Virus record (IMG/VR): IMGVR_UViG_3300044971_004534
Origin: a virus
Direction: 5' to 3' (one strand)
DNA length: 64,000 nucleotides
Position 1 is the first letter of the stretch. Each line of letters opens with the position of its first letter. The notes beneath the pieces are model-generated. The model was not told the origin of the DNA and ran no database searches. It was given only the letters and a program-made list of their open reading frames with translations. The translations under genes were made by a program, and so were the position numbers. Positions 16,319-42,954 of the stretch are shown here, in pieces.

Positions 16319-16675
16319 GTGGAATATATATATCACATAGTTATTCCAAAAAATCAAGCAACTAGAGTAAATGATTGCTTTAGTAAACTTTGTAAAACTA
16401 AATCTAAACCTTTTATTTTAAATTTAGCAGCAAAAAGTGTTTATAAAGCCACGCATGTGGGTGCTTTTGGAATTTCTGAAGAAGAACTAAAGATATTTGA
16501 AGTTGTTCTTCAACTTGATAGTCCCGGTGTTTTTTGGTGGAAAGTATCTTCAAAAGATAGTCGCTTGGATGACTGTAATGATGCAGATTGTTTTGTGTAT
16601 TTAGGCGAAAAACTAGAATACAAGCAATTGTTTAAAAAAGCAGGCTTCATCTATTTGAATCAAGAAAATGAGTAA
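16319..16675 (+). CDS. hypothetical protein (118 aa, GTG start); sits where a small terminase would be expected
   Basis: Overlaps the terL start by 8 nt. No DNA-binding or small-terminase motif recognised, so the call rests on position only. Confidence 0.5.
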   Translation: MEYIYHIVIPKNQATRVNDCFSKLCKTKSKPFILNLAAKSVYKATHVGAFGISEEELKIFEVVLQLDSPGVFWWKVSSKDSRLDDCNDADCFVYLGEKLEYKQLFKKAGFIYLNQENE

Positions 16676-25245: not shown

Positions 25246-26233
25246 ATTCAATTTATCTAAATTTGCACAAAAGCAGATAGAGATGACTTCTCCTCCTGTA
25301 GTTCAGGGGGCTGAAGAGTTTAGCGATTTGGAAATGACTAAGGAGCCACAGTCAGATGCTGGTTTGCTTATGTCTCCTGGTAAAGATATTGATACAGATA
25401 TCGAAACCATATCAGTTCCTGTGTTTGAGAATCATGTACAAATGTACGAAAAATTAAAATCTTTTTCATCTGGAGATATTAAGTCTTCAATGAATTCTGC
25501 ATGGAATGAATATTTTTCTCAATCTGTCGGGTCAACAGAAATAGCTGACGACTTTAAGGCTGGACTTTCTCAATTTTTTGAAGTTCCATCTGATTCAGAA
25601 GATGCAGTAGATATTGCTAACAGACTGTTTGATATGTACGCAAAAATACATCCACCAAAGAACGAGGAAAGTGAAATGGACATAGCTACCGCAAGTACAT
25701 TGCATGTTATGAAAATAGCTAAAGAAATTGCTGCTTCTCAAAAGAAGCAAAGTTCTTCTCAAACTTTTAATTTAACAAAGACTGCTCAGCATAAGAGTAT
25801 TATGCATAGTTCTATTATATCAGGCCCTAGTCAAACTTCTTTGAGTCCATTTAGTAGAGATATACAGAGTGGTCTTCATCTTATTGAACAAAATAAAGGT
25901 TTTGGATTAAAAATTGATGATGTTTTAGATATTGATTTTGAGGCAATATGGCGTGGTAACGTTATGGATAAGTATAATTCTCCATATCGAGACGAAGAAG
26001 GAAATTATGTTGGTGGTTACATTAACAGAAGATTTGAAGTAAATCGCAACATCCCAAAGGGTAACAATTTGCAATTGCTTCCAGGTACTCGCAGCCGTCC
26101 TTGGTTGCCTCAATATTCAACACTGGAGTCCAGAATGGAAGTTTTGAGAGGCAATGAGGACAAGCTTGTTAATCCAGCAACATTTAATAAATTGTCCATA
26201 GGTCCATTTAACTTAAAAAAAAAGAACAGTTGA
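25238..26233 (+). CDS. hypothetical protein (331 aa from ATG 25238; the ORF track starts at TTG 25226)
   Basis: GGAGA lies 5 nt upstream of ATG 25238. There is an 8-nt overlap with the upstream gene. Confidence 0.7.
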   Translation: MPKFNLSKFAQKQIEMTSPPVVQGAEEFSDLEMTKEPQSDAGLLMSPGKDIDTDIETISVPVFENHVQMYEKLKSFSSGDIKSSMNSAWNEYFSQSVGSTEIADDFKAGLSQFFEVPSDSEDAVDIANRLFDMYAKIHPPKNEESEMDIATASTLHVMKIAKEIAASQKKQSSSQTFNLTKTAQHKSIMHSSIISGPSQTSLSPFSRDIQSGLHLIEQNKGFGLKIDDVLDIDFEAIWRGNVMDKYNSPYRDEEGNYVGGYINRRFEVNRNIPKGNNLQLLPGTRSRPWLPQYSTLESRMEVLRGNEDKLVNPATFNKLSIGPFNLKKKNS

Positions 26234-26451
26234 GTCTTAAAACTGCTGCCGGTCAAGGGTCTTCTTCATTTAATAGAGCCCTAGACCGTGCTTTCTCTTT
26301 TATGAAACCCGATAAAGGTAATATATATTCTAGACAGAAAAAAATCTGTCCAGTATGTAAGTCTGACAATTCTGCTGATTCTTCTAAAAATCAGAATAAA
26401 TGCGTTAATTGCGGGTTTGACTTAGGTAAAGTTCAAGTAACAAGAGTGTAA
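26230..26451 (+). CDS. small zinc-ribbon protein (73 aa, TTG start)
   Basis: CPVC-x17-CVNC four-Cys ribbon. Sits immediately upstream of the portal gene. Confidence 0.5.
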   Translation: MSLKTAAGQGSSSFNRALDRAFSFMKPDKGNIYSRQKKICPVCKSDNSADSSKNQNKCVNCGFDLGKVQVTRV

Positions 26452-26456
26452 AATAA

Positions 26457-28739
26457 ATGGCAAAATCAAACGGTAAAGAACAGGAAATAAACAAGACTGC
26501 CTCCAATGAAGTTTTTGATGGACGCAAGTACGCTAACTCTGCAGCTGTATCTTTGCCTTTGACTAAAGCAGCTCAATATGTTGGAGGCAGCGCTAGTACC
26601 ATATTTACGCAGCCTATGTTTTTTAGTCCGCTGCATACTCCACAAAATTGGCAGATTGCCAGTAAGAGAAAAGAAGTTTACCAGTGGGCTAGATTTTATT
26701 ATGAAAACGAGCCAAAAGCAGCAGCAGGCATAGATTTTTATGCTGGCTTTCCAATGAATGGCTTTAATTTGGAATGCAAAGATAAAAAAGTACTAGCTTA
26801 TTTTGAGCATTTAACAGAAAAACTTAATCTTGAATATTGGTTAAGAAAAATTAGTCATGAGTATTTTTTACTCGGAGACGTTTTTGTATTTACTGAAATA
26901 GAGTGTCCTGTCTGTCGCGGTCTGGGCCATCTTCCCAACGGCAACATATGTAATCACCCAGATGGTACAATTAAGCGTTTGTTGATTTTAAATCCAGATT
27001 TTATTGAGGTGCAGAACACGCAGTTAGCAGATGAACCAACAGTTGCTCTTATTCCAGATGATGATTTAAAAAGAGTGGTCGCTCAGAAAAAACCCAAAAA
27101 TGTTTATGACCGCATTCCTGATTCGATCAAAGAGTACGTTTTATCAGGTAGGCCAATTCCTCTTAGTCCAAGATGCATAAGTCATATTAGACATAAGGGT
27201 TCTCCATACGGAACTTATGGAGAAAGTCTGTTGAGAAGATTGTTTACCATTATATCTTATAAAACAAAATTAATGACAGCTAACTGGATTATGGCTGAAA
27301 GGCATATATTGCCTGTTAGAGTTGTTAAGGTTGGAAACGCTGAACGTCCAGCTTCTGAATTTGATATTGCAGATGTTCAGGGTCAGCTTGCTGCAGTTGC
27401 AAACGATCCTAATTTAACTATTGTGACTCATCATGCATTTGAAATGGACTTTATTGGTGCTACTGGCAAAATTCATGACATATCCAATCAGTTAGAAATG
27501 ATTGGTAAAGAAATGCTTGATGGATTGATGTTGCCGCAAACTCTTCTTAATGGAGAAATGGCTGCATATAGTGCAGCAGCAGTTGGTGTTGAAACTTTGA
27601 TACGTAGACTTGAAACTTGGCGTATGGAACTTTCGTCTTGGGTTGAGAAAAATATATTTTTACCAGTCGCTCAGATGCAAGGTTTTGTTGACACTCAAAA
27701 GAGTAAGTTGGTAGGGGACACTGTATGGTTAACTCCCAAAATTAAGTGGAATGATTTGCGGTTACGAGACAATAGTCAGTATCTGCAAAGCTTAATGCAG
27801 TTGCATGATAAGGGCCTCATATCTACTCAAAAGCTTTTAACTGAATTTAACATTGATTTTGATCAAGAAGTTAATAGGCTTCGTGAAGAGCAGATTACTG
27901 CAGGTAAGGGCGGTCAGGTTCTTGGCGGTGCTGGAGATGCTGGCGGCGGCATGGGTGGTTTAGATTTAGGTCTTGGCGGACCTCCCGGTGGTGGCGGTGG
28001 GTTAGATCTTGGTCTTGGCGGCGGTGGCATGCCTCCTGGCCTTGCAGGGCCAGGTCCTGGCGGCGCACCTGGAGCAGCACCACCACCTGGTGGCGGAGCT
28101 CCTCCAGCTCCACCTATGGGGGCCATGGCTAGCGACGAAAATGATGACATGACAAAGGTTGCACAGCTTTCTCTAATGAATGATCCCAGTCAGCAATCTG
28201 TAGATCCATCCATGAGAGTCTACAAGAGAGGCAAGCAGCCAAAACAAAAAAAATCTGATGAACCAACAGTTGAAAATAAGCAAATATTTTTGACTAAACC
28301 AGAGCAGAAGCTTTTCAGCATCGTTAAGTCTCTTAATGTTCCATTGAGATTATTTGCTCAATATGAATTTAAGGTTCCAGGTGAGCAAAACGCATATCTA
28401 CTAGATTTTGCCTTCCCGGATATCATGCTAAACTTTGAAGCAGATGGAGATTTTTGGCATTCTGATGCCAGTGCCGTTGAGAGAGATAAGCAGAGAGACA
28501 TGAAGTTGGCGAGCATGGGGTGGCGTGTGGTAAGAATTAAAGAAAGTGCATTAAATACTAATGTTGAATTAGTTACTCAAATTATTGTGAATAATATTAA
28601 AGACACTATTGCTCAGCGTAAAGCTTTAATGGCCAAGCGTGCTAGTGTTAATGCAGAAGATAGTATTTACTATGAAGATGGAGATGAATTAAAGATTTCT
28701 TACCAAAATTTGATTTATGATAACAGTGACAATTCATAA
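26457..28739 (+). CDS. portal protein with C-terminal Gly/Pro linker and DUF559/Vsr-like endonuclease domain
   Basis: 760 aa. Sits directly upstream of the protease/scaffold, decoration and capsid genes. The N-terminal ~480 aa are portal-like in size and pattern (YQWARFYYENEPKAAAGIDFYAGFPMNGF...). The C-terminus YLLDFAFPDIMLNFEADGDFWHSDASAVERDKQRDMKLASMGWRVVRIKE matches the DUF559 layout. Confidence 0.75.
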   Translation: MAKSNGKEQEINKTASNEVFDGRKYANSAAVSLPLTKAAQYVGGSASTIFTQPMFFSPLHTPQNWQIASKRKEVYQWARFYYENEPKAAAGIDFYAGFPMNGFNLECKDKKVLAYFEHLTEKLNLEYWLRKISHEYFLLGDVFVFTEIECPVCRGLGHLPNGNICNHPDGTIKRLLILNPDFIEVQNTQLADEPTVALIPDDDLKRVVAQKKPKNVYDRIPDSIKEYVLSGRPIPLSPRCISHIRHKGSPYGTYGESLLRRLFTIISYKTKLMTANWIMAERHILPVRVVKVGNAERPASEFDIADVQGQLAAVANDPNLTIVTHHAFEMDFIGATGKIHDISNQLEMIGKEMLDGLMLPQTLLNGEMAAYSAAAVGVETLIRRLETWRMELSSWVEKNIFLPVAQMQGFVDTQKSKLVGDTVWLTPKIKWNDLRLRDNSQYLQSLMQLHDKGLISTQKLLTEFNIDFDQEVNRLREEQITAGKGGQVLGGAGDAGGGMGGLDLGLGGPPGGGGGLDLGLGGGGMPPGLAGPGPGGAPGAAPPPGGGAPPAPPMGAMASDENDDMTKVAQLSLMNDPSQQSVDPSMRVYKRGKQPKQKKSDEPTVENKQIFLTKPEQKLFSIVKSLNVPLRLFAQYEFKVPGEQNAYLLDFAFPDIMLNFEADGDFWHSDASAVERDKQRDMKLASMGWRVVRIKESALNTNVELVTQIIVNNIKDTIAQRKALMAKRASVNAEDSIYYEDGDELKISYQNLIYDNSDNS

Positions 28740-28803
28740 TATATTCCTACATTGAAAAGGAAAAATAATATATTTTATCAAATGAATATGTTACAAGGCT
28801 ATT

Positions 28804-29217
28804 ATGATCAAATCTGCTGCTAAAAGAATAAAAGATAGAAACATTAATTGGCGTGAGGCTTATTCCGAACGTACAGCACCTTTACACAAGCGTTATACTG
28901 AGCAGGTAGGTCCCGGTTCATATCGCAGATGGGAAGGTCATGACTATACTACAAATAGTGACTATTATGTTGTTTGTAGTCCTGCGCAGACTAAGTATGG
29001 CGAAAAGGCATATTTTGCCGGTATTAAAAAGTTACCACCTCTTGCTGTTAGAGATGTAGTAAAAACATATTCTCCTTATGGAAAATATTTTAACAACATG
29101 TCTTCTGCTTTATCTTTTTTAAAAGAAAAGTATGGCATACCATGGCCAAAAGGTCAAATTAATTACACCACAGACCATATTCAAAATATTGAGATACCTA
29201 GATTTGTAAAGGCATAA
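28804..29217 (+). CDS. hypothetical protein (137 aa)
   Basis: ORF lies between the portal and the giant head gene. No motif recognised. Confidence 0.7.
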   Translation: MIKSAAKRIKDRNINWREAYSERTAPLHKRYTEQVGPGSYRRWEGHDYTTNSDYYVVCSPAQTKYGEKAYFAGIKKLPPLAVRDVVKTYSPYGKYFNNMSSALSFLKEKYGIPWPKGQINYTTDHIQNIEIPRFVKA

Positions 29218-29219
29218 AA

Positions 29220-32200
29220 ATGGATAAATTTACAATAACAACTGAAAGACAAATAGAAGCTCTTAACGTCCCATCTAATTGGGATGAAATAAATCTATCT
29301 CCTATTACCAAATTTGCTTCAAAAGAAAAATCATTTGAGGATCACGTAAAAGCAATAGATCTTGGTGGTTTTGATATTTTAGCAGCTATTAAAGATAATC
29401 CAGATCATTTGTTTGTAAAAGTTTTTGCAATTAAAAAAGATGAAGTTAATGACAACGGAGACTATTTTAGTGAAAATGAACTGAAAAAAGCTGCTAAAAC
29501 TTTCATAGGTGTTCCTGTATTTGTAAATCATCAAAACGATGACGTAGAAAAGGCACGTGGTAAAGTTGTTCATGCTTGGTGGGATGAAGATCGTGGAGGT
29601 ATTTATACAATTAATATGGTTGACAAGGTTGCTTATCCACGCTTGGCCAGAGGCATTGAGGCTGGATACGTAACTGGAAGCAGTATGGGTTGCAGTGTTA
29701 AGTACAGTTGCTGTTCTGTTTGTCACACTCGTGCTGCTAATGCTAAGGAATACTGTTCTCATATTAAAGAGCGTAAAAAGAAAAATTTTACTGGTGAGCA
29801 TGAGTGCGAATATCATAAAAGTGCAAATGCTGGAGATGAACCATGTCCTGTTTGTGGATGTGAAAAGGGCAAGAAGAAATTAAACAAATATGCAAGTCAG
29901 CAGATTTTTGAACATAATTACGGTGTTAAATTCATAGAAGACAGCTTTGTTGTTAATCCTGCGTGTCATGATTGTCTTGTAAGTGACATTATAAATCCAA
30001 CTGGGTTGCTTAAAAAGGTAGCTGATCTTAGAGAAACTCTTGCTAAAATTGGCACATCAATGGATAGCGATTCTTCTTTTGGCATGGAATGTTCTTCTGG
30101 CCAGTGTAGTCTTCACAAGGCTGCTGGAAAGCAAGAAATTAATGAATTAAATGATGCCATGAACCAGCTTGAAAGAGTTGCGCGTTCGATGATGGCTCAA
30201 AAAAGCAAGGTAAGTTTAGAATATGTGTCAGACATAGTTAAAGTTTGTTCTGATATTCAGAAAATATCAGATGAATTAGTTGAAATGGGCTATGCAGTTT
30301 TGCCAAGTCCTACTGAGTCTCAGATAGCATACGGTACAAATGCTCCTGCAAGTCCTATGACTAAGCCTCAGTCTGCTGTGCAAATGCCAGTTTCTGCTAT
30401 GCCTCAGCCTTCTTCTGCTGCTGTGCCATCAGTTCAGCCAAGTATGGCTATGCCAGCACAAACGGCAGCGCCCATGTTAAAATCTGTGCCTATGGCAGCT
30501 AATCCTCAGATCCAAGAATTTGGAGATGAGGTTGGAAGGGTAACAAAGCCAAATTTTATTCCAGTAAAAGCAGATTCCGCAAAGGATTTTATTAAAATAT
30601 CTAATAGTATAACAAATAGGCTAAATAGTCTAGCTAATCGTATATACATTAACGGAGAATTTATGTCAGAAAATTCAGGATACAAGTTCACACAAGGTGA
30701 TGATACAATAGTTATTTCTTCAGACAATGATGGAGAAACTCATATAGCACATCTTAAGGGTGATCGCTTAATGAAATGGTCCAGCATAGATTCTTTCGAT
30801 GCAGATACTCAAAACATGATTAATCATGATCCAAAACAGGCAGCTCGTAAAATTTTAAATTCATACTTGAACAATACTTCAGAGGAGTCAATTACATCCA
30901 TGGAAAGCTCAAATCAAAACAAAGTTGCACAGGCACGTACCGGTGACGCACATGAAGTCACTACAGAGGCACAGCTCTCTGGCGTAAAGGGAATTCATGC
31001 TCGCAAGGGAGAGGCTCCCACTGCCACCACTGAAAGTAAGGAGCAGCTCGGTGCTGCTAAGTCTTACAGTGATGTTGGCGGAACTTCAGCCACTCCTCGT
31101 CAAGGTACTGCATACGAAACAGTTGTTGAAGCTACTTTGAACTCCAAGACCGGAGGATTCATGGCTCGTTGGGGATCTTTCCCTGAAGTAATTACAGAAG
31201 CTCAATGGAACGACATTAGTAGAGAGGTCTTTGCAAACATTCCATCTGATTGGACTTCTGTTGCCAAACAGGGTCAGCTTGAAATGTTGCAGAAGACATT
31301 TAGTTGGACTGAGCCAACCGTAACCACTGAAGGTCAGCTTGCTGGCAAGTCCATGAAGAAGGCTTCTGCTCAAGATCTTATTAAGCAGGCACAGGGAGCA
31401 ATCGCTGATGCAATGGCTTTCTATGGAGTTGGTGCCGAAGACATTCAAAACACAGTTGATTTTATCACCTCTGACTCTTCAAGACAAAATAAAGCAAAGA
31501 TTGTTGTTGCCATGAATGCAGCTCCATGGGCTGTTGAGTCTCGTAAGGTAAACAATAGTCGTCTTGCAAATTTCTCTAAGGTTGCATCTGAAGTGTATGG
31601 AGTTGAGCCCGTTGATGCTGTGCTTGCTGCAGTTGGTGATAATCTAGAATCTTCTTCAGCTGAAGAAGTTCTTTCTGCTCTTGCTTTCGTTGCTAACAAC
31701 AAGTTGGCAATGCAGCAAGCAGAAGAATTAGCAGTTGAAAGATATGAAAACGCAACATCTGAATCTTCAGAAGATGATTCCGACATGTTCCGCAAGGCAT
31801 TTAGTGAAATGTCCTTGCCAGAGGACGGAATCATCAAGGTTTGCATGAGTGCAGAAGACGATCTTGGCATGGAGGTTTCCTCTGGCAAAGACTTCATCGA
31901 AGCAGTGCACAAGTTTGCTCAGACCATGGTGAACGAAAACCTTGGTCAAAACGTAGACATTATTCCAGTCGCAGTTGATGTTGATGAGGACAATGGTCTT
32001 GTTGAAGCAACTTGCAAAATTGCTTCCAAGGTTACCGATCAGGAAAAGGCAGCTTTTGAAAAGTGGGCTTCTTCTGTCCCTGCAGAAAAGGTAGTTGCTG
32101 AGGAGTCATCTCAAACTAAGAGAGCTTCTTTGCTTGCTGATTTAGACAAGCTCGAAAAGCAGGCTCAGCTTGCTGGTGGTCAAATGCCAGCTGGATTGAA

Positions 32201-34991
32201 TCCTGCAGGTATGGGCATGGGCATGCAGTTGCCTGGTGGAGCTCCTCCAGCTGGTGCTCCAGGAGTTGAGGCTTTAACTGCAGGCGCTCCTGTTGATCCC
32301 GCAGCTGCTGCTCCAATGGGTGCAGATCCTTTGGCTGGTGGTGATATGGGCGGTGAGGCAGAAGAAAGTAAGCCAAAGCCACCAGGCGCAGTTTGCGTTG
32401 TCTGCGGTGGACAGGATGTTGATGTTCTTGGCGGTAAGTCCAAGTGCAATGGTCCTGGATGCGGCTTAAATTATACAATCAAGATTGTACCTGATGCATC
32501 TTTACTTGACAAGATCACAGATGGTGATGTTGATCAAGAAGACGTTACTGCAAGTCCAGAGTCTCCAGAAAAGGGATTGGGTGGCGAAGGTGCAATGTCT
32601 CCTGCTCCAGACATGGGTATGGGCGCTCCAGCTCCTGGCGGCATGCCAGGAATGGGTGGAATGGCAGTTGCGGCTTCTACCAAAATCAGCGCAGATACCA
32701 TGAAGAAGTTTGCTTCTAAGGGCGAGCTTGGCAGTATCAGTCCAATCAGTGGTGAACGTAACACCGTCAAGTTAGATAAGGAGCACTGGCAGTGCCTTGA
32801 TAGTGGTCAAATCTATAAGGTCAGACTTGCTGCAAAGACTGACGATCCAAAGCATGTTTATGCTCAATGGGAATGGGCTCCTGTCGCTAAGCAAGCCTCT
32901 TGCACTCCATGTGAGCGCAAGAAGAATGCAATAATCAAGGCTCTTTCTGCAGTTGGTATTTCAGAGGACTCTTTTGATGGAATGTCAATGCAGGATAAGG
33001 CAGCTGCTCTTAACACCATCAATGATAAGGGTCTTCTTGGAACTATCAAAGAAGCATCTTCTGATGACGTTAAGGGATTCTTCAAGCAAGCATTTACTGT
33101 TCATGGTGAATTCCCAATGTCAAGATGCATTGAAAAGCTTGCAAACAGATACGGTGAGAATGCGCTCGCACTAAGTGGTCCATGTGAGGGTAAGAATCTC
33201 GCAGAATGTGTTTGCGGATCTTTGTCTGACGAAAACGTCTATACAACTAAGCTTGCTAACAAGATCGCATCTGCTTGGTCAGAGCGTGATGCAATGCATG
33301 AGTGCGTAGAAGATTTTGTCAGAAGTGGTCTAGTTTTGAATAAGGCTGCTCAGGCATGTGAAGATCTTAAGTCTAAGTACGTGTCTGCAGAAGAAATTTA
33401 TGCAGAAACTCTTTCTGAAGATCAGTCCATCAAGTCTGCTATGGGTGATGGAGAAATGGATGAAGAAGATCCATTTGACTCTGAAGATTTCTCTGATTCT
33501 CCTGAGGGAGACGAAGGTGAAATGCCAGAGATGTCTGGTATGGATTCTGGCGAGGATATGGAAGAAGATCTTGACATGGATGAGCCAACTGAAGAAGAAA
33601 TGCCAGAAGGCTACCGCGACGAATCAGATGATGAAGGTTTCGATTTAGATATTGAATTCGAAAACACTGATTCGTCTGATATGGGTGAGGATGCAGATCT
33701 TGATGTTGAAATAGAAATGCCAGAATCAGAAGAAGGCATGGAGCCAGAATCTGAAGAGTCAGAAATGTCCGAAATGCCAGAACAAGAGGAGGGCGAAATG
33801 GATACAGCAGAAGATACCGAAGGTCCATCTATGATGGAAGAGTCTGATATGATGAAGGAAGCTCCAAAGAGCGCTTCTCAGAATGATGAGATAGAGCGCC
33901 TTGAAAAGGAAGCTCATTCTCTTCGTCGTGGACGTATAGTCGGTGTCAATAAGTTAAACATTGATATTGACTCTATACGTGCTGCTCTTAACAAGCAAGC
34001 CAAGTCTGGCAAGCTCGAACAAACAAGTGCACAAGACGTTGTCGGTGCAGTTGCAAACGGCAAGCCACACAAGGATAGCACTCAAGAGGGCTTCTCAGCC
34101 GAATCTCCCGATGTTCCAAGCAATGGCGGTAAGCCATTGGCTGCTGAGCACGGAGAGGGATTCAAGGAAAGTGCTCCAGAAATTCCATACGGTGATGGTC
34201 AGTTTGAAGGCGAGCCAAACAAGGGTGAAATGCAAAATGCAATCACTGGCGGACAGGCTGGTCAAGGCAAGGATCACACTGGAAAGTATCGCAAGGCTTC
34301 CAACATGTTCGATCAAGCTTTGTCTAAGTTAGCAAAAGACATGGGCTTGTCCGTTCACACCGTGCAGGACGATGCTGATCTAGGTCAGATAGCCAACGGT
34401 AAGCCACACAAGGACAGCACTCAAGAAGGTTTCTCTGCCGAAACTCCTGATGTTCCAGAAAATGGAGGCAAGCCTCTTTCTTCTGAGAAGGGTGAGGGCT
34501 TCAAGGTAGATTCTCCAAGTATCCCAGCCGGAGATGGTCAGCTTGGCCATGAATCTGAGCTTGGACTTGAGGGCGAAAAGCAAAATCAAATCACCGGTGG
34601 TCAAAACGGCCAGGGTGGTGCACAAAACTATAAATCTAAGAAGGCCAGTAGTGCCAACAAAGAGGTTGCAATTAAGCTTGCTGCCAAAATGGTAGAAAAC
34701 GGCATAATCAAAGCCGACCAGATGCCAGCAAAGCTCGCGGAGTTGCAGAGATACGAGGTATCTCAGCTTCGTGACCTCGAAAAGGCGATGTTTAATCGCC
34801 CAAGCGCTACCAAGGGTCTGAAGGTTGCATCGAGTGGAGTTGAGCAGCCACTCGTAATCAACGAAGTAAGCAGTCACAAAAATGCTTCGTCTGATCTGAA
34901 AGGTAAAATTGCTTCTCTATTCCGTCTCCAACAGCAGGTCGAGATGGCAGATGAGAGCGAGGCTGCTAAGTTACGTAATGCATTCAAATGA
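29220..34991 (+). CDS. giant head protein (1923 aa): N-terminal prohead serine protease-like domain fused to a scaffold/internal-protein-like low-complexity region
   Basis: The N-terminus DEVNDNGDYFSENELKKAAKTFIGVPVFVNHQND...RLARGIEAGYVTGSSMGCSV resembles the His/Ser motifs of HK97 gp4 / T4 gp21-type prohead proteases. It is followed by Cys clusters, P/A/M-rich and G/P/M-rich linkers, a very acidic block, and a 113-aa tandem duplication. It occupies the position of protease plus scaffold. Confidence 0.6.
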   Translation: MDKFTITTERQIEALNVPSNWDEINLSPITKFASKEKSFEDHVKAIDLGGFDILAAIKDNPDHLFVKVFAIKKDEVNDNGDYFSENELKKAAKTFIGVPVFVNHQNDDVEKARGKVVHAWWDEDRGGIYTINMVDKVAYPRLARGIEAGYVTGSSMGCSVKYSCCSVCHTRAANAKEYCSHIKERKKKNFTGEHECEYHKSANAGDEPCPVCGCEKGKKKLNKYASQQIFEHNYGVKFIEDSFVVNPACHDCLVSDIINPTGLLKKVADLRETLAKIGTSMDSDSSFGMECSSGQCSLHKAAGKQEINELNDAMNQLERVARSMMAQKSKVSLEYVSDIVKVCSDIQKISDELVEMGYAVLPSPTESQIAYGTNAPASPMTKPQSAVQMPVSAMPQPSSAAVPSVQPSMAMPAQTAAPMLKSVPMAANPQIQEFGDEVGRVTKPNFIPVKADSAKDFIKISNSITNRLNSLANRIYINGEFMSENSGYKFTQGDDTIVISSDNDGETHIAHLKGDRLMKWSSIDSFDADTQNMINHDPKQAARKILNSYLNNTSEESITSMESSNQNKVAQARTGDAHEVTTEAQLSGVKGIHARKGEAPTATTESKEQLGAAKSYSDVGGTSATPRQGTAYETVVEATLNSKTGGFMARWGSFPEVITEAQWNDISREVFANIPSDWTSVAKQGQLEMLQKTFSWTEPTVTTEGQLAGKSMKKASAQDLIKQAQGAIADAMAFYGVGAEDIQNTVDFITSDSSRQNKAKIVVAMNAAPWAVESRKVNNSRLANFSKVASEVYGVEPVDAVLAAVGDNLESSSAEEVLSALAFVANNKLAMQQAEELAVERYENATSESSEDDSDMFRKAFSEMSLPEDGIIKVCMSAEDDLGMEVSSGKDFIEAVHKFAQTMVNENLGQNVDIIPVAVDVDEDNGLVEATCKIASKVTDQEKAAFEKWASSVPAEKVVAEESSQTKRASLLADLDKLEKQAQLAGGQMPAGLNPAGMGMGMQLPGGAPPAGAPGVEALTAGAPVDPAAAAPMGADPLAGGDMGGEAEESKPKPPGAVCVVCGGQDVDVLGGKSKCNGPGCGLNYTIKIVPDASLLDKITDGDVDQEDVTASPESPEKGLGGEGAMSPAPDMGMGAPAPGGMPGMGGMAVAASTKISADTMKKFASKGELGSISPISGERNTVKLDKEHWQCLDSGQIYKVRLAAKTDDPKHVYAQWEWAPVAKQASCTPCERKKNAIIKALSAVGISEDSFDGMSMQDKAAALNTINDKGLLGTIKEASSDDVKGFFKQAFTVHGEFPMSRCIEKLANRYGENALALSGPCEGKNLAECVCGSLSDENVYTTKLANKIASAWSERDAMHECVEDFVRSGLVLNKAAQACEDLKSKYVSAEEIYAETLSEDQSIKSAMGDGEMDEEDPFDSEDFSDSPEGDEGEMPEMSGMDSGEDMEEDLDMDEPTEEEMPEGYRDESDDEGFDLDIEFENTDSSDMGEDADLDVEIEMPESEEGMEPESEESEMSEMPEQEEGEMDTAEDTEGPSMMEESDMMKEAPKSASQNDEIERLEKEAHSLRRGRIVGVNKLNIDIDSIRAALNKQAKSGKLEQTSAQDVVGAVANGKPHKDSTQEGFSAESPDVPSNGGKPLAAEHGEGFKESAPEIPYGDGQFEGEPNKGEMQNAITGGQAGQGKDHTGKYRKASNMFDQALSKLAKDMGLSVHTVQDDADLGQIANGKPHKDSTQEGFSAETPDVPENGGKPLSSEKGEGFKVDSPSIPAGDGQLGHESELGLEGEKQNQITGGQNGQGGAQNYKSKKASSANKEVAIKLAAKMVENGIIKADQMPAKLAELQRYEVSQLRDLEKAMFNRPSATKGLKVASSGVEQPLVINEVSSHKNASSDLKGKIASLFRLQQQVEMADESEAAKLRNAFK
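34053..34625. repeat. diverged tandem duplication, period 339 nt (113 aa)
   Basis: ANGKPHKDSTQEGFSAE(S/T)PDVP(S/E)NGGKPL...GEGFK...P.GDGQ...ITGGQ.GQG occurs twice, with copies starting at 34053 and 34392. Confidence 0.85.
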
Positions 34992-35021
34992 CTTGCAAAT
35001 TAATTCTTAAGGAGAATAAAA

Positions 35022-35591
35022 ATGGCTTTAATTGAAGTTTTTCACACAATAGCAACCCAGCTCCCCACCACTGCTACAGACATTGTTGAGGGCATGGGCG
35101 TTAAGCTCAGTGCAAATTCAGGCGCTGAGTCCTCAGTAGTTAGAAAGAGTTCTAACACTGACATCGTGTTTGGTATAGCAGGAGACAGCGCAAAAAGCAC
35201 TGGTCCAAATAAGCCCTATGGAGCTTCTTTGGTTGTAAATGCTGCTGGCGGCACTCGTGCAACTCAAAACCGTGTCTCTGATTTCTTTAATGAGACTGTT
35301 GGTTCTGGAAAGATGACTGTTTATACTGGTATTGGAGAATTTTACACTGACCAGTATGACACAGGTCAGTCTTATACAGCTGGTGCAGCTCTTTACTGCA
35401 ACGGTAATGGTAAGTTGACCAGTGTGTCTTCTAGCATGGGCAATCAGATTGGATACATAATTGACGGGCCACGCGCTTATCCAAGCGGTGTTCCTGGCGT
35501 AGACGACGGTGGCGTTGCTGGAAACACTGCTGCAGTTAATGGCAGCTTGTCTCTTGGCACCTTCCTCCGTTTCTACATGAACGTTCAGTAA
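35022..35591 (+). CDS. head decoration-like protein (DUF2190-like pattern), 189 aa
   Basis: SD AAGGAG upstream. Lies between the scaffold-like and capsid genes, as D does in lambda. The pattern IVFGIAGDSA...KMTVYTGIGEFYTD...YTAGAALYCNGNGKLTS is tentatively DUF2190-like. Confidence 0.45.
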   Translation: MALIEVFHTIATQLPTTATDIVEGMGVKLSANSGAESSVVRKSSNTDIVFGIAGDSAKSTGPNKPYGASLVVNAAGGTRATQNRVSDFFNETVGSGKMTVYTGIGEFYTDQYDTGQSYTAGAALYCNGNGKLTSVSSSMGNQIGYIIDGPRAYPSGVPGVDDGGVAGNTAAVNGSLSLGTFLRFYMNVQ

Positions 35592-35655
35592 TTTTATATT
35601 GGTATTCTTGTTGAGATCAATATAACAAAATAAAACTTTGAAAGGATATACAAAC

Positions 35656-36528
35656 ATGTCACTAAATAAAGATGGTTTGACCTATGATGAAAAGGAGGCA
35701 GTGATTGCCCAAGCCCTCGCAACCGAGGAAGGCCGCACTGCTCTCGCACAGGCCATGGTGGAGCCAATCCGCCGTTCACTAGAGTATCAGGCTGTAGGCC
35801 GCAAGCTTCTCATGGTAGATGAGCTCCCACAAGGCGCTCTTCCCCGCTATGAGCGCGATGTTGCCTCTACAGCAACTGTTATTGCCCGTCAGGGTGCAGT
35901 TCCCGATCAGATTCAGGAAGGCGAGGAAGTCCTCGTTCCAACTTTTGAGATCGCTGCTCACCCAACAATTCGTTTGAGCGAGATCAAGGCACGTCGCTTC
36001 TATATCGTTGACCGTGCTCAGATCAAGGCAAAGGAAGCCATTCAGAAGGAAGAAGATCGCAATATCTTCAGCGCTCTGATTGCTGCTGCTGATGCTCGCA
36101 ATGATCAAGTCGTTGGTAACACCGGTGACTTGACCACTGATTCGCTCAACGTTGCATACCGTTTGATTGAGACTCACGATCTTGTCGCAAGCAAGGTTGT
36201 TGCTCACCCCCTTCAGTATGCTCGTTTCCGCGTGTTTGGTAAGACCTTCTATGATGAGGCTACCACTCGTGAAATCCTCACCACCGGTCTCTATGGTCAC
36301 CTCTGGACTGCTGACATCCACGTCAGCTCCCAGCTTGACGCTCAGACCGTATTGGTGTGCGCTTCTCCCGACACTGTCGGTGCCTTCCCCATCCGCCAGG
36401 ACATCACAGTCCTTCCAGCAGATGATCCAAAGAAGCTCCGTCTTGGTTGGGTAATCTACGAAGAAGTCGGCATCGTTGTTATGAACGATTACGCCATCTC
36501 GAAGATCGAAGTTTACCGTGCATCCTAA
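35656..36528 (+). CDS. major capsid protein (HK97-fold candidate), 290 aa
   Basis: It occupies the last position of the head module. AAGGA lies 9 nt upstream of ATG 35656 (the ORF track starts at TTG 35638). GC and C-ending codon use are markedly elevated. The strongest terminator in the window follows it. The sequence pattern is capsid/encapsulin-like (RKLLMVDELPQGALPRYERD..., VGAFPIRQDITVLPADD). Confidence 0.75.
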   Translation: MSLNKDGLTYDEKEAVIAQALATEEGRTALAQAMVEPIRRSLEYQAVGRKLLMVDELPQGALPRYERDVASTATVIARQGAVPDQIQEGEEVLVPTFEIAAHPTIRLSEIKARRFYIVDRAQIKAKEAIQKEEDRNIFSALIAAADARNDQVVGNTGDLTTDSLNVAYRLIETHDLVASKVVAHPLQYARFRVFGKTFYDEATTREILTTGLYGHLWTADIHVSSQLDAQTVLVCASPDTVGAFPIRQDITVLPADDPKKLRLGWVIYEEVGIVVMNDYAISKIEVYRAS

Positions 36529-36558
36529 TAGCTAGGTAAATATAGGGTTTTTTAAATC

Positions 36559-36596
36559 GCAACCCGCTCTCCGAAAGGAGGGCGGGTTGCTTTTTA
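36559..36596 (+). terminator. rho-independent terminator
   Basis: The 14-nt stem GCAACCCGCTCTCC (36559-36572) pairs with GGAGGGCGGGTTGC (36577-36590) with one G-U pair. The loop is GAAA and a TTTTT tract follows. Confidence 0.9.
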
Positions 36597-36615
36597 TGTA
36601 TTAATATATACTTCT

Positions 36616-38184
36616 ATGAATTGGTATAAAGTTGCTGACAAAATATCTAAATCTATTCAGTTAACTCCTGAAGAGCATGCTATATTTAATGTAATTAAGG
36701 CTGGCAGAGATGCATACGCTTCAGGTGTTCAATTGAGGATCGCTGGAGGATGGGTTAGGGACAGGTTGCTTGGCAAAGTATCTGACGACATAGATATCGC
36801 TGTTAGCGGAGGTGATGGCAACTCTGTGGCAGAAGCCGTTAGACGTTATGATATTGAACAAAATGCAGGCAAGCACACAAAAGATCCTTACGCAGTAAGT
36901 TTAGAAAAAACTCAACCGGGTGAAAAGAAAACAAGTGCTGGACTAAAAGTAGGCGCTATAGATATTAATGGAATTAAGGTAGAATTTGTGCCTATGCGCA
37001 CAGAGATTTATAATCCTACCAGTAGAGTTCCAGAAATATCTGCAACAAATGATCCTACAGAAGACGTAAAAAGAAGGGATTTAACAATTAATGCAATTTA
37101 TTATAATATTGATACTGGTAAAATCGAAGACTATGTAGGCGGGGTAAAAGATTTAGAAAATGGTATTTTAAGAACGCCAGTTGATCCTGTAGTAACTTTA
37201 AAAGAAGATCCGTTAAGAGCATTAAGGGCATTGCGTTTTTTATCTCAAATGTATGGCTTTGAGCTTGATGAACAGTTGGTTGAAGCATTGAAGCATCCAG
37301 AAGTTCATAAGTCTTATCTTGATAAAGTCGCTCCAGAGCGTGCAAGAAAAGAACTTGAAAAGCTAGTTCTTGGTAAGCGTCCTGCTGATGCTATAAGGCA
37401 TTTCTTTTCAAGTGGTCTGTATTTACCAGTCTTTCATCATAAAAAACTTTATGGATTTAAGCCTATTCATATGGATCAAAACAACCCTCATCATCAGTAT
37501 AATTTGCTTGAGCATACTGTTCATGTAGTAAAAAATTTAAATAATATGCTCATTGATGCTGGAGTTTCAGACAAAGAAAGAATGGTTGCTGTTATGGCAG
37601 CTATATTCCATGATTTTGGTAAAATGGACCCAAATATTGTGCGTCCAAGTAAAAGCAACCCTAATGCTTCTTCTTATCCAGGTCATGAGAATGTCTCTGC
37701 TGAACTTGCTGTAGAAATACTGAAGAGACTTGGTTTTGGAAATGAAAGAGAATTAATATCTAAAGTTGTTCAAGAACATATGCGTCCTCATGGAGAAATG
37801 CAAAGTCCAAAATCTATTGGTAAATTTTTACGAGATTTTGAGTCGATGAGTATTGGCGATGATTCCAAAACAAGATTGTGGTGGTTGACTTTTATGCATG
37901 CGATAGCAGATTCTATGAGTAAAGGTGGAGTTGATTATGATGAGGAAGTCAAGGGGAAGCATGATCAAATCAAGACAATCGAAAAGTTTATTGAAGAAAG
38001 ATCTAAGGTGGGCACTAAGCCGCTTTTGAATGGAAAAGAAATTATGGATTTGTTTCCTGATAAAAATCCTAAAACTGGATTTATAAATGTAATGCAAAAT
38101 GCTTTAGCTGAAGCTCAAGATAGTGGTGAAATAAAAGACAAGAATGAAGCAAAAAATTTCTTGCTAAAACAGTTTTCTCAATAA
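36616..38184 (+). CDS. cca: CCA-adding enzyme / tRNA nucleotidyltransferase (class II polymerase-beta head + HD domain)
   Basis: Motifs: RIAGGWVRDRLLGKVSDDIDIAV, RRDLTINAIYYN, DPLRALRALRF, and the HD motif IFHDFGK. Confidence 0.9.
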   Translation: MNWYKVADKISKSIQLTPEEHAIFNVIKAGRDAYASGVQLRIAGGWVRDRLLGKVSDDIDIAVSGGDGNSVAEAVRRYDIEQNAGKHTKDPYAVSLEKTQPGEKKTSAGLKVGAIDINGIKVEFVPMRTEIYNPTSRVPEISATNDPTEDVKRRDLTINAIYYNIDTGKIEDYVGGVKDLENGILRTPVDPVVTLKEDPLRALRALRFLSQMYGFELDEQLVEALKHPEVHKSYLDKVAPERARKELEKLVLGKRPADAIRHFFSSGLYLPVFHHKKLYGFKPIHMDQNNPHHQYNLLEHTVHVVKNLNNMLIDAGVSDKERMVAVMAAIFHDFGKMDPNIVRPSKSNPNASSYPGHENVSAELAVEILKRLGFGNERELISKVVQEHMRPHGEMQSPKSIGKFLRDFESMSIGDDSKTRLWWLTFMHAIADSMSKGGVDYDEEVKGKHDQIKTIEKFIEERSKVGTKPLLNGKEIMDLFPDKNPKTGFINVMQNALAEAQDSGEIKDKNEAKNFLLKQFSQ

Positions 38185-41429: not shown

Positions 41430-42143
41430 ATGAAAAAGATACTACTATCATTGCCTCAAGTTGAATGGTCATGCTTTCTGGCGTCATATTTGCAAAACAT
41501 TTTGCAAATATACTATGCAACACCGGTTGATTTTGATTTGCTTGAAAAAAATTCTATTGATGAAATAACTTTTCCATATATAGGCGGTAAAAATCAAATC
41601 GTTAATTATTGTGAAATTCAAAAGTCATATGACTTGGTTGTGGACTTAGATCCTGATCCGTTGTTTTCTAAGTTTTTAAATAATAAATATGGGAATGTTG
41701 AAAGTATACAGAATTGCTTATATAATTCAGGTGAAATTTCTATATGGGAATCTGTTGCTAATCATTTTTCTGTACCGTTTTTAGAGCCAAAATTTTCTAT
41801 AAAAATTAAAAATAAGACTCGTAAAAATCGTTCTATATCTGGTGTTGCGATAAAAAATAACAATTTAAGGTCATATGTCAAAAATGCTTTTTTTATTGAA
41901 GACAACAGATTGTGGCATGTTCCCGTAAGACAAAATTTGATTAAAAGATATGATGAGTGTAATACTGTAGAAAGTATTGTTACTGATGATATCTTCTGTG
42001 CTTTATCAGGTTTTGCAATGAATAAAGATGTAATATTTTTAAGGCTTAATGAGTGCACTCCAAATATTCATATAAAAGATAAAATACATATACAAGATAT
42101 TGGAGATTTTATTAATGCAGCTCATACTAAAGAAGCCAATTGA
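41430..42143 (+). CDS. hypothetical protein (237 aa)
   Basis: Starts 1 nt after the upstream stop. No motif recognised. Confidence 0.65.
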   Translation: MKKILLSLPQVEWSCFLASYLQNILQIYYATPVDFDLLEKNSIDEITFPYIGGKNQIVNYCEIQKSYDLVVDLDPDPLFSKFLNNKYGNVESIQNCLYNSGEISIWESVANHFSVPFLEPKFSIKIKNKTRKNRSISGVAIKNNNLRSYVKNAFFIEDNRLWHVPVRQNLIKRYDECNTVESIVTDDIFCALSGFAMNKDVIFLRLNECTPNIHIKDKIHIQDIGDFINAAHTKEAN

Positions 42144-42954
42144 TAGGAAAAAATCTGTAAAAAGCGTTAAAGAACCCATTAGGTATTTACCAACTAATTT
42201 TGGATTTCATATACCTAATGTGAATCCTGGGAATGTTAAAGTCGCTGTTTTGGACACAGGAGTTCCAGCTCATAGCGATATGTCAAATATAGGATGTCAT
42301 TCTGAACTTTCATTTGTAGATCTTTTATCTTCAAAATCTACAGTATGGGATGAGCATGGTCATGCTACGATAGTTACTGGGATACTCGCTGGGTCTAATC
42401 CAAGCACCATCATGGGTATGGCTCCATCTGCAAGATATTATTTCTGTAAGGTGATGGACGATTTTGGAGATGGAGACACAAACAATTTAACAGCCGGAAT
42501 AATATGGTCAATTACTAATAACGTTGATATTATTTTGATATGCGCTGGCTCTCCAATTTATGACAGATATTTAGAAAAAGTGATTAAAAAAGCAGTAGAT
42601 GTTGGATGCATAGTTATAGCTTCATCTGGCAAGGAGGTAACTAGGGGAAATAAAATATTATATCCAGCAGCATTTGACGGTGTTATATGTTGTAGTTCTT
42701 CCAAGGAACCAAGCTCTCAATTTGTTCCTGATAAAAATAAGCTCTATGTTGATGTGAATGCAAGTAACACGTGGTCTACTTTTCCGTCAGATTCTTATAT
42801 GAAAACTTCTGGTAGTAGTATTGCAGCGTCTATTGTTTGTGGGTGTAGTATTAATCTTCTTGGAGATTGCCGCATGAGGAATATTCCTATTAATAGTGTA
42901 GCAGACTTTATGCAGAAGATGGATAGTTCTTTTAGGGGTGAATCATATGGCTAA
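42115..42954 (+). CDS. subtilisin-like serine protease (peptidase S8)
   Basis: Catalytic triad motifs appear in order: VAVLDTGV (Asp), HGHATIVTGILAG (His), TSGSSIAASIVCG (Ser). ATG 42115 has GGAG upstream (the ORF track starts at TTG 42100). No obvious signal peptide. Confidence 0.85.
   Translation: MQLILKKPIDRKKSVKSVKEPIRYLPTNFGFHIPNVNPGNVKVAVLDTGVPAHSDMSNIGCHSELSFVDLLSSKSTVWDEHGHATIVTGILAGSNPSTIMGMAPSARYYFCKVMDDFGDGDTNNLTAGIIWSITNNVDIILICAGSPIYDRYLEKVIKKAVDVGCIVIASSGKEVTRGNKILYPAAFDGVICCSSSKEPSSQFVPDKNKLYVDVNASNTWSTFPSDSYMKTSGSSIAASIVCGCSINLLGDCRMRNIPINSVADFMQKMDSSFRGESYG

Follow-up and report, generated by a model that had tools for sequence, protein, structure and literature searches.

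A predicted prohead protease fused to a conserved giant body in the head-gene module of a phage related to phage G

A single open reading frame of 1923 codons lies between the portal gene and the capsid gene of the 64,000-nucleotide stretch of viral DNA analyzed here (the window), and raises the question of what a protein of this size contributes to the building of a phage head. To our knowledge, capsid building and sizing in phages with genomes of 400-550 kb are largely unexplained, with phage G as the sole cultivated example; the clade that carries the giant gene is itself uncultivated. The initial annotation described the product as a prohead-protease-like N-terminus joined to a very large modular body, and proposed that it is a self-processing polyprotein supplying the scaffold and internal head proteins.

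The giant gene (29220..34991; this and all features described below lie on the + strand) starts with ATG and encodes a protein of 206 kDa with a pI of 4.66 and a net charge of -123. It is a genuine gene. At the window GC of 0.379, 1923 codons without a stop would arise by chance with a probability of ~1e-62, and the GC content by codon position (0.57/0.41/0.33) fits the coding expectation. The single frame called in the initial annotation recurs intact in independent assemblies of NCBI, Logan and JGI, 13 contigs of which encode an identical 1923-aa product, and more than 200 full-length homologues of 1800-2700 aa display the same architecture from end to end. Together with the improbability of so long an open frame, these contigs and homologues refute the alternative that sequencing or assembly error has merged several genes; nothing was found in its favor, and we assign it a negligible probability. 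The landmarks listed from the sequence (motifs, Cys clusters, linkers, acidic block and duplication) were all found in the translation. The remark that the protein is far larger than usual holds in comparison with characterized phages and fails in comparison with metagenomes, where the architecture is common: most of the best 150 representative clusters (formed at 50% identity), in number more than 100, carry proteins of 1500-2700 aa. In the 91 intein-free homologues, which are ~30% identical, total length is 1941 +/- 70 aa, with linkers that are almost unalignable across the family; a sister family has giant proteins of 1500-1900 aa. Contigs bearing homologues of the gene reach about 400-550 kb. 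A megablast search of positions 26000-38000 against 50,697 GenBank phages gave no match, and we found no description of the family in the literature.

The N-terminal domain (29358..29999, aa 47-260) has the prohead serine protease fold of HK97 gp4, T4 gp21 and assemblin, in an AlphaFold (AF2) model with pLDDT >90 over aa 50-250. The top 16 matches of a Foldseek search against the PDB were T4 gp21 (5jbl) and herpesvirus proteases/assemblins (probability 0.77-1.00, E 3e-3 to 4e-2). A fold search of BFVD returned 168 matches at E<=1e-3, many of them annotated as prohead proteases and the best being phage G gp19 (3e-19). Among the PHROG families the protein matched phrog_18299, 'head maturation protease' (6e-12), and phrog_2774 (1.6e-29). 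The Pfam model Peptidase_S78_2 scored the query at 15.7 bits, below its gathering cutoff of 24, and S78 was likewise below threshold; when 20 family members were searched, S78_2 was matched by seven (best E 1.9e-4) and S78 by two. Comparison of the N-terminus with PDB sequences by phmmer and by profile produced noise only.

The motifs pointed out in the initial annotation are DNGDYF (aa 78-83), GVPVFVNHQND (aa 97-107) and GIEAGYVTGSSMGCSV (aa 145-160). The predicted catalytic residues are His104, in the motif FVNHQND (29529..29531), and Ser155, in the motif G-S/T-S-M-G (29682..29684). In hhalign alignments they fall on H65/S114 of HK97 gp4 (E 0.0038) and on H85/S140 of T4 gp21 (E 9e-5), which we take to be the catalytic His and Ser of those proteases. 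Because His104 and Ser155 align with these residues, the likeness originally drawn to the 'LNHP' and 'GVSSRG' motifs of T4 is correct, and both fold and profile alignment place the N-terminus in the HK97 gp4/T4 gp21/assemblin clan. Both residues are nearly invariant (at least 90% conserved in the family), M156 and G157 are invariant, and the invariant E231, N233, E240 and S242 are candidates for the third residue of the catalytic triad.

Inserted in the protease domain is a series of conserved Cys/His clusters (29691..29975, aa 158-252), which includes CCSVCH (aa 164-169), CSH (aa 179-181) and CPVCGC (aa 209-214). C165, C168, C179 and H181 are invariant or nearly so in the family, and further pairs are formed by C195/H198, C209/C212 and C249/C252; at least two metal sites are predicted for these clusters. 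The C165/C168/C179/H181 set is common to phage G gp19 and to Cali gp93, a protein of a cluster C mycobacteriophage, and is absent from HK97 gp4. Prohead proteases that bear such Cys/His clusters can now be set apart as a subtype, which comprises 4,572 representative clusters. Of 120 homologues, 26 have inteins in the domain; the three insertion points, none more than 25 residues from S155, are between G153 and S/T154, between G157 and C158, and between F178 and C179. Inteins typically sit at essential active sites, and their presence at a prohead protease active site is now on record. The domain could instead be a relic without catalytic activity, retained in a large structural protein solely for its structure or for targeting to the capsid, as the sub-threshold Pfam scores and the Cys/His insertions, unusual for this fold, might suggest. 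However, the alignment of two nearly invariant residues with the catalytic pairs of two characterized proteases, the clustering of inteins at the Ser155 motif and the lack of any other recognized prohead protease in the head module, albeit with an S8 subtilisin gene 7 kb downstream, make this highly improbable, and we assign the N-terminal domain to the prohead serine proteases with high confidence.

The genes around this protein form a head module. The portal protein (26457..28739), which has a C-terminal DUF559/endonuclease-like domain, is followed by a conserved 137-aa ORF (28804..29217) that is 56% identical to a 146-aa ORF of the relative L007. Downstream of the giant gene, a 189-aa ORF (35022..35591) occupies the position of a decoration gene; it has no similarity to phage G gp26, and ORFs near its size are kept in the relatives L007 and L008. 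The major capsid protein of 290 aa (35656..36528; phrog_2522, 1e-63) shares 53% of its residues with phage G gp27 in an alignment of 279 aa (E 1e-106). The 137-aa and 189-aa ORFs are the only other neighbors of the giant gene in the portal-to-capsid interval, and sequence searches recognized no ORF of this interval as a scaffold. Neither the giant protein nor the 137-aa neighbor gave a match to Phage_Mu_F or related families in Pfam or PHROGs, as a MuF/SPP1 gp7-type minor head protein fusion with polymorphic cargo would. The capsid protein has no delta domain, its alignment with phage G gp27 beginning from residue 4 to 8, and would therefore need a separate scaffold. The head-gene order is kept in the 36%-identical relatives L007 and L008, on contigs of ~500 kb, which bears out the original placement of the gene in the protease/scaffold slot; in both relatives an extra ORF of 573-619 aa adjoins the giant gene.

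The remainder of the protein (aa 300-1923) is an acidic body of ~1,550 residues and ~170 kDa with a pI of 4.7, roughly half of which is disordered; in the AF2 model, helical and folded modules alternate with disordered linkers. A helical hairpin after the protease (30129..30284, aa 304-355; helices 304-326 and 333-355) is modeled with a pLDDT of ~92 and was also found in 106 of 110 additional representatives. The P/A/M-rich disordered linker that comes next (30342..30509, aa 375-430; 21% Ala, 21% Pro, 14% Ser and 12% Met) is poorly occupied and poorly conserved when the family is aligned. A mostly helical folded domain (31155..32174, aa 646-985; pLDDT 70-90) has no fold match in the PDB and no match in PHROGs. 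Two disordered linkers with 25% Gly, one G/A/P/M-rich (32175..32366, aa 986-1049) and one G/P/M-rich (32520..32663, aa 1101-1148), flank a zinc-ribbon module of beta strands (32367..32519, aa 1050-1100; pLDDT 74-86), in which the segment CVVCGG...CNGPGC (aa 1059-1081) supplies a CxxC (1059/1062) and a CxxxxC (1076/1081) pair. All four of these Cys are invariant, and the module is present in 32 further representatives.

The second linker leads into a conserved Cys-rich alpha/beta domain (32664..33455, aa 1149-1412) with seven invariant Cys and a pLDDT of 84-92, which is found in 45 further representatives, the sister family included. It has no relative in the PDB by fold or profile and none in PHROGs; its profile retrieved only designed helical repeats from the PDB sequences, which are spurious. 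A homologue search with this domain returned two truncated fragments, one of which was checked and is cut by the end of its contig, and therefore yields no evidence of free-standing versions. An acidic disordered block of ~140 residues follows (33456..33869, about aa 1413-1550), with 29% Glu, 18% Asp, 13% Met, 10% Ser and a net charge of -64 over aa 1407-1547. The last large feature is a tandem duplication of a ~113-aa unit (34020..34700, aa 1601-1713 and 1714-1827), whose copies are 60% identical over 104 aa (BLASTP, E 9e-34). Both copies are seen in the family consensus; they are mostly disordered, rich in G/P/E/Q and modeled with low AF2 confidence. At the DNA level the duplication is invisible, and TRF detected no tandem repeat.

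The body as a whole gave no match in PDB, Pfam or PHROG searches, and tblastn with aa 430-1923 gave none among the 50,697 GenBank phages. The best Foldseek match of the body in the PDB had an E value of 0.21, to be read in the light of a 1200-residue multi-domain model that is 45% low-confidence and with which weak matches could be missed. In these searches the body resembled no known internal, ejection, core or scaffold protein.

In T4, phiKZ and SPN3US, the prohead protease cleaves on the C-terminal side of Glu and also trims itself (PMC5694885), and the giant protein contains two kinds of motif that might be read as targets. Five copies of (P)(E/D)-V-I-T-E-x-Q-(L/W), of the type VITEKQL, lie at 30945..31349, with their Glu at positions 583, 605, 637, 660 and 704. 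The motif occurs 3.5 times per homologue, compared with 0.018 in shuffled sequences; within the window it is confined to the giant gene, and it is kept in the 1500-1900-aa sister family. In the AF2 model copies 1-3 are in a disordered part of the chain, and helices begin at copies 4 and 5. The I, T, Q and L/W positions are nearly invariant, more so than the putative P1 Glu, which 8-27% of sequences replace by Gln. This exchange weakens the reading of these copies, the only repeated candidate motif, as Glu-specific cleavage sites; we have downgraded it, as the sequence has a hydrophobic-staple/capping-box pattern and may be explained at least as well as a helix N-cap. The linkers between the body modules hold no repeated cleavage motif.

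A further candidate for a maturation cleavage site is the motif P-L-V-I-x-E (34848..34865, aa 1877-1882), which lies 41 residues before the C-terminus. The pattern [ILVTA][ILVT]xE is found in this region in 91 of 117 aligned sequences, with the Glu kept in 98 of 120 and the Ile in 100 of 120, and an equivalent motif stands 40-45 aa from the C-terminus in the sister family. Beyond it extends a basic tail (34866..34988, aa 1883-1923) with a pI of 9.4, a family identity of 0.36-0.46 and the family consensus ELxxKLxSLFxL, which by analogy is a candidate capsid-binding element. A profile of the last 48 residues aligned with the C-terminus of phage G gp19 at E 0.75, which is not significant. After the protease domain, no in-frame ATG has a convincing ribosome-binding site; genuine starts in this DNA mostly lack one too. 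Processing of the giant protein into discrete products is plausible.

Phage G gp19, annotated as a head maturation protease (PMC12484599), is 34% identical to the protease of the giant protein (tblastn 8e-29; Foldseek 3e-19) and, like it, has a CxxC...CxH cluster following the catalytic Ser; both genomes have the order portal ... protease ... capsid protein, with capsid proteins that are 53% identical. Unlike the giant protein, gp19 is free-standing, 300 aa long and devoid of the second Cys cluster (aa 190-252), and nothing of the body (aa ~375-1923) is detectable in gp15-gp28 by family-profile hhalign. Cali gp93 (1286 aa, phrog_2774) has the same protease subtype at its N-terminus (hhalign 2.5e-23), there too joined to a long body in which low-complexity sequence abounds, and its gene is also directly upstream of a small ORF and then the major head protein. 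The Cali body, however, is unrelated and carries a Phage_L5_gp82 domain; against phage G gp15-gp28 and Cali gp92-94, the family profile matched the protease domain alone. A 1082-aa protein of Gordonia phage Pupper, found among the protease-fold matches in BFVD, again has the protease fused to a large body.

HK97 gp4 and T4 gp21 have the same fold, with His and Ser aligned, and their genes also lie between portal and capsid genes, but these proteins are free-standing, 212-225 aa long and without Cys/His clusters or a fused body. Domain order and gene position instead show a protease fused in frame upstream of a putative assembly region, in the head-gene slot, an arrangement that it shares with herpesvirus UL26, where an N-terminal protease with this fold and the assembly region downstream of it form one in-frame product. 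In UL26, the M-site lies near the C-terminus, ahead of a short tail, and the near-C-terminal candidate cleavage motif and short tail of the giant protein parallel this position. The giant protein is three to seven times longer than UL26 and the lambda C/Nu3, P2 gpO and Mu I/Z fusions, and differs from them in that its body comprises a number of separate folded modules, with two motifs of zinc type. The nested scaffold-only start of protease-scaffold fusions is not evident in the giant gene, in a genome that uses little Shine-Dalgarno sequence.

The giant protein is best read as a greatly enlarged form of the known protease-scaffold fusions. More specifically, we consider it somewhat probable that the gene encodes a protease-scaffold/core fusion whose N-terminal protease is active and whose body is removed by processing. 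We infer this role from the position of the gene between the portal and capsid genes, in an order kept in 36%-identical relatives; from an acidic body in which folded modules alternate with disordered linkers; from a length held constant across intein-free homologues; and from the hydrophobic-x-Glu motif and basic tail that parallel the herpesvirus M-site. Together with the capsid protein, which lacks a delta domain, the giant protein would assemble into a very large procapsid and form its scaffold or core, probably tethered through the conserved C-terminal region of the giant protein. Once the shell had closed, the protease would cut the chain, and the pieces would exit or be displaced as DNA enters, by the same logic as in herpesvirus UL26, lambda C/Nu3, P2 gpO and Mu I/Z. 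Phage G sets a limit on this reading: its 53%-identical capsid protein, free-standing protease and lack of a body homologue in gp15-gp28 together imply that the body is dispensable for a phage-G-type shell. The 573-619-aa ORF of L007 and L008 could be the real scaffold in those relatives, which would count against such a role for the giant protein.

Two other roles for the body deserve consideration. In the one, it is a packaged cargo or ejection polyprotein that the protease targets to the head and frees, and its folded modules stay in the head, are injected and act in the host. Discrete conserved folded modules with invariant Cys and Gly/Pro, joined by flexible linkers, look more like functional domains than like a simple coiled-coil scaffold and would suit such a role, and the packaging of ejection proteins after processing is known from giant phages (PMC5694885). 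Proteases of this type are also found on the unrelated large bodies of Cali gp93, with its L5_gp82-like domain, and of the 1082-aa Pupper protein, which suggests that the protease is a carrier for varied cargo. On the other hand, no module matches an enzyme, a DNA-binding protein or a known ejection protein, cleavage motifs do not recur in the linkers between modules, and the strong negative charge of the body would presumably oppose its sharing the head with packaged DNA; we see the cargo role as possible, if on the unlikely side. In the other, rigid modules and long linkers span the distance from the core or portal to the shell and set its radius as a ruler that is then self-removed. The constancy of length in the face of almost unalignable linkers is what a ruler might be expected to show, the contigs with the giant gene reach ~400-550 kb, and the capsid protein of the window is close to that of phage G. 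Yet the protease with which phage G makes its capsid has 300 aa, no homologue of the body is detectable in gp15-gp28, and the bodies of the sister family are shorter (1500-1900 aa), so that a size-determining function of this kind appears very unlikely. A bolder form of the scaffold/core reading, in which no scaffold or core other than the giant protein exists and its ~1,940 residues act as a self-destructing ruler that sets the size of a megaphage shell, with some modules without detected relatives, such as the zinc ribbon and the Cys-rich domain, surviving as internal proteins, and in which it constitutes a distinct class of capsid-assembly protein restricted to a large clade of uncultivated phages with 400-550-kb genomes, seems to us doubtful.

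An uncultivated clade related to phage G thus has its maturation protease welded to a conserved ~170-kDa body without a detectable homologue. If this body is a scaffold or core, it would offer a single-gene handle on the assembly of giant capsids. The comparison also bears on existing records: Cali gp93 is annotated as hypothetical or as a 'tape measure', and this label, like the 'hypothetical' borne by most of the other proteins with this protease, can now be corrected.

The gene at 29220-34991 (+) is an uninterrupted ORF with an ATG start, encoding a protein of 1923 aa and 206 kDa (pI 4.66, net charge -123) in which the only basic region is confined to the last 41-96 residues. At the GC content of the window (0.379), 1923 stop-free codons would arise by chance with p near 1e-62, and the GC content per codon position (0.57/0.41/0.33) follows the pattern expected of coding DNA. 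Gene calls on 13 contigs, drawn from independent NCBI, Logan and JGI assemblies, give the identical protein; the long frame is thus not an assembly artefact. The motifs and low-complexity segments listed in the initial annotation were all found in the protein where it had placed them, and the 113-aa duplication it described is borne out in the protein sequence (60% identity, E 9e-34); Tandem Repeats Finder detected nothing of it in the DNA.

The N-terminal domain is predicted to be a prohead protease. Modelled by AlphaFold from 75 sequences, residues 50-250 have pLDDT above 90, and the top 16 matches of a fold search against the PDB are exclusively T4 gp21 (5jbl) and herpesvirus proteases (probability 0.77-1.00). 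Against viral models, 168 matches were obtained at E<=1e-3, many of them named prohead or head-maturation protease; the best was phage G gp19 (3e-19), which is annotated as a head maturation protease (PMC12484599), and other leading matches were a 1082-aa Gordonia phage protein and proteins of phiRSL1 and PaBG. PHROGs gave a match to 'head maturation protease' at 6e-12, while Pfam S78-type models were matched below threshold only. Profile alignment places His104/Ser155, which are nearly invariant across the family, on His65/Ser114 of HK97 gp4 and on His85/Ser140 of T4 gp21, the catalytic pairs of those enzymes. A Cys/His set right behind the catalytic strand is a feature of this protease subtype: C165, C168, C179 and H181 are common to the giant protein, phage G gp19 and Mycobacterium phage Cali gp93, whereas C195/H198, C209/C212 and C249/C252 occur in the giant proteins only. 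Judged from sequence, these clusters are probably metal sites.

The protease active site is also marked by inteins, present in 26 of 120 homologues and inserted at three positions around the catalytic serine (G153|S/T154, G157|C158 and F178|C179). Their ends are canonical, with a Cys/Ala start, an HN/SN end and Cys/Ser/Thr at +1, and LAGLIDADG/Hint domains were identified in those of P0007, P0013, P0024, P0026, P0027, P0043, P0048, P0052, P0060 and other homologues; P0027 carries two inteins. The copy in the window is intein-free. We found no report of inteins in prohead proteases in the literature searched.

A database search for homologues returned 211 proteins, encoded on metagenomic contigs as long as about 550 kb whose sources include marine (Tara) and sediment samples; the best 120 of the 211 all have E < 1e-240 and span 1443-2714 aa, and intein-free members (n=91) measure 1941 +/- 70 aa. 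The family alignment displays the same series of conserved blocks and variable linkers over the full length. When the N-terminal profile was run as an exhaustive HMM search, 4,572 representative clusters scored E<=1e-3 and 1,097 scored E<=1e-30; the best 150 are mostly 1500-2700 aa. A sister group of 1500-1900 aa has the post-protease hairpin, zinc ribbon, Cys-rich domain and short motifs in common with the giant proteins.

Upstream of the giant gene lie the large terminase (16668-18539), tail-fibre-like genes, the portal protein (26457-28739; phrog_16240 2e-44, Pfam Portal_Mu) and a conserved 137-aa ORF; the giant gene is followed downstream by a 189-aa ORF and the 290-aa major capsid protein (phrog_2522 1e-63). 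The latter is 53% identical to phage G gp27 (E 1e-106), and the alignment begins almost at the first residues, indicating a capsid protein without a delta domain. Around homologues of 35% and 33% identity, on contigs of 498 kb (L007) and 537 kb (L008), the genes follow the same order: portal, small ORF, giant gene, ~180-aa ORF, capsid protein. After the small post-portal ORF and ahead of the giant gene, both contigs have an extra ORF of 573-619 aa with a P/Q-rich C-terminus (L007 6203-7924, L008 6133-7992), which has no counterpart anywhere within the 64-kb window.

Ordered and disordered parts of the body were separated with a model of aa 560-1759 (40 sequences, mean pLDDT 59). A conserved helical hairpin (aa 304-355, from the N-terminal AlphaFold model) precedes a disordered segment (aa 560-645), a mostly helical domain (aa 646-985, pLDDT 70-90), a disordered G/A/P/M linker (aa 987-1049), a zinc ribbon with four invariant Cys (aa 1054-1100), further disorder (aa 1093-1146), an alpha/beta domain with seven invariant Cys (aa 1149-1412, pLDDT 84-92), a disordered acidic block (aa 1419-1559) and the largely disordered duplicated units (aa 1601-1827). 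The body has no match in Pfam, PHROGs or the PDB by sequence profile or fold, none among 50,697 GenBank phage genomes, and none to the head-module proteins of phage G or to the Cali gp93 body.

The firm conclusion is that, in a phage whose shell protein is of the phage G type, the head-assembly slot encodes a predicted prohead protease joined to a conserved body of very large size. The initial annotation had proposed that the body supplies scaffold and packaged or ejected proteins together. The most economical reading is a scaffold or core, which the attached protease would remove; it is favored by the gene position and the capsid protein without a delta domain, by the absence of other candidates in the portal-to-capsid stretch of this window, and by a body that is acidic, mixes helices with disorder and is conserved in length. 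Against it, phage G makes do with a protease that stands free and has no detectable homologue of the body among its neighbors in the head module, some relatives have the extra neighboring ORF, and the well-folded Cys-rich modules resemble functional domains more than scaffold. The main rival is that the body is packaged or ejected cargo freed by the protease; this is compatible with a scaffold or core role, and the two are not mutually exclusive.

Candidate processing sites are present in the body. Five copies of (P)(E/D)-V-I-T-E-x-Q-(L/W) lie at aa 576-710; the motif averages 3.5 copies in each homologue, compared with 0.018 in shuffled sequences, is retained in the sister family and is absent from the rest of the window. 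Conserved hydrophobic-hydrophobic-x-Glu is found at only seven columns of 1923 alignment positions, namely the five repeats, one in the hairpin and one at aa 1882, where P-L-V-I-x-E lies 41 residues from the C-terminus with Glu in 98 of 120 sequences. As the prohead proteases of T4, phiKZ and SPN3US cleave on the C-terminal side of Glu and also trim their own chains (PMC5694885), these motifs invite analogy with herpesvirus release and maturation sites. In the internal repeats there is hardly any variation at Thr, Gln and Leu/Trp, but Glu is replaced by Gln in 8-27% of sequences, and at all five repeats in seven proteins. The I-T-x-x-Q-L pattern is also that of a hydrophobic-staple/capping-box helix start, and the last two copies do start helices in the body model; both points counsel caution in reading the repeats as cleavage sites. 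Cleavage at the repeats is therefore possible, and cleavage near the C-terminus somewhat more likely.

Herpesvirus UL26, lambda C/Nu3, P2 gpO and Mu I/Z are established protease–scaffold fusions. New in the present case are the size (206 kDa), the particular body, in which several modules have no fold match, the additional metal-type clusters of the protease, the active-site inteins and the breadth of the clade; we found no description of the giant protein in the searchable literature, and its interest is limited by an uncultivated clade that offers no experimental handle. The same protease subtype is fused to an unrelated 1,050-aa body in cluster C mycobacteriophages, which was previously unrecognised. 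Cali gp93 (1286 aa; 6911-10771 of the Cali locus L002), labeled 'tape measure' in RefSeq and 'hypothetical protein' in sister phages, starts with this domain, lies immediately ahead of the major head protein and contains a Phage_L5_gp82 domain; its protease start and location make the 'tape measure' label very likely wrong.

Elsewhere in the window, the very long ORF at 5597-11488 (1963 aa) matches tail-fibre and virion-structural PHROGs, that at 58865-63541 (1558 aa) has no PHROG match at all, and the ORFs at 46274-48865 (863 aa) and 56264-58861 (865 aa) have none either. Most gene starts (e.g. 26457, 29220, 36616, 41430) are preceded by A-rich sequence with no Shine-Dalgarno motif, which may hint at a weak-SD host such as Bacteroidota. 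Past a G/P-rich linker, the portal C-terminus (aa about 614-726) is a DUF559/MTES_1575 (Vsr-like endonuclease) domain, a fusion also seen in the 35%-identity relative (L007 3442-5769). The major capsid gene is immediately followed by one for a CCA-adding tRNA nucleotidyltransferase that bears an HD domain (36616-38184), and ~7 kb past the capsid gene there is a subtilisin-like Peptidase_S8 gene (about 42115-42954), in the same relative place as in L007.
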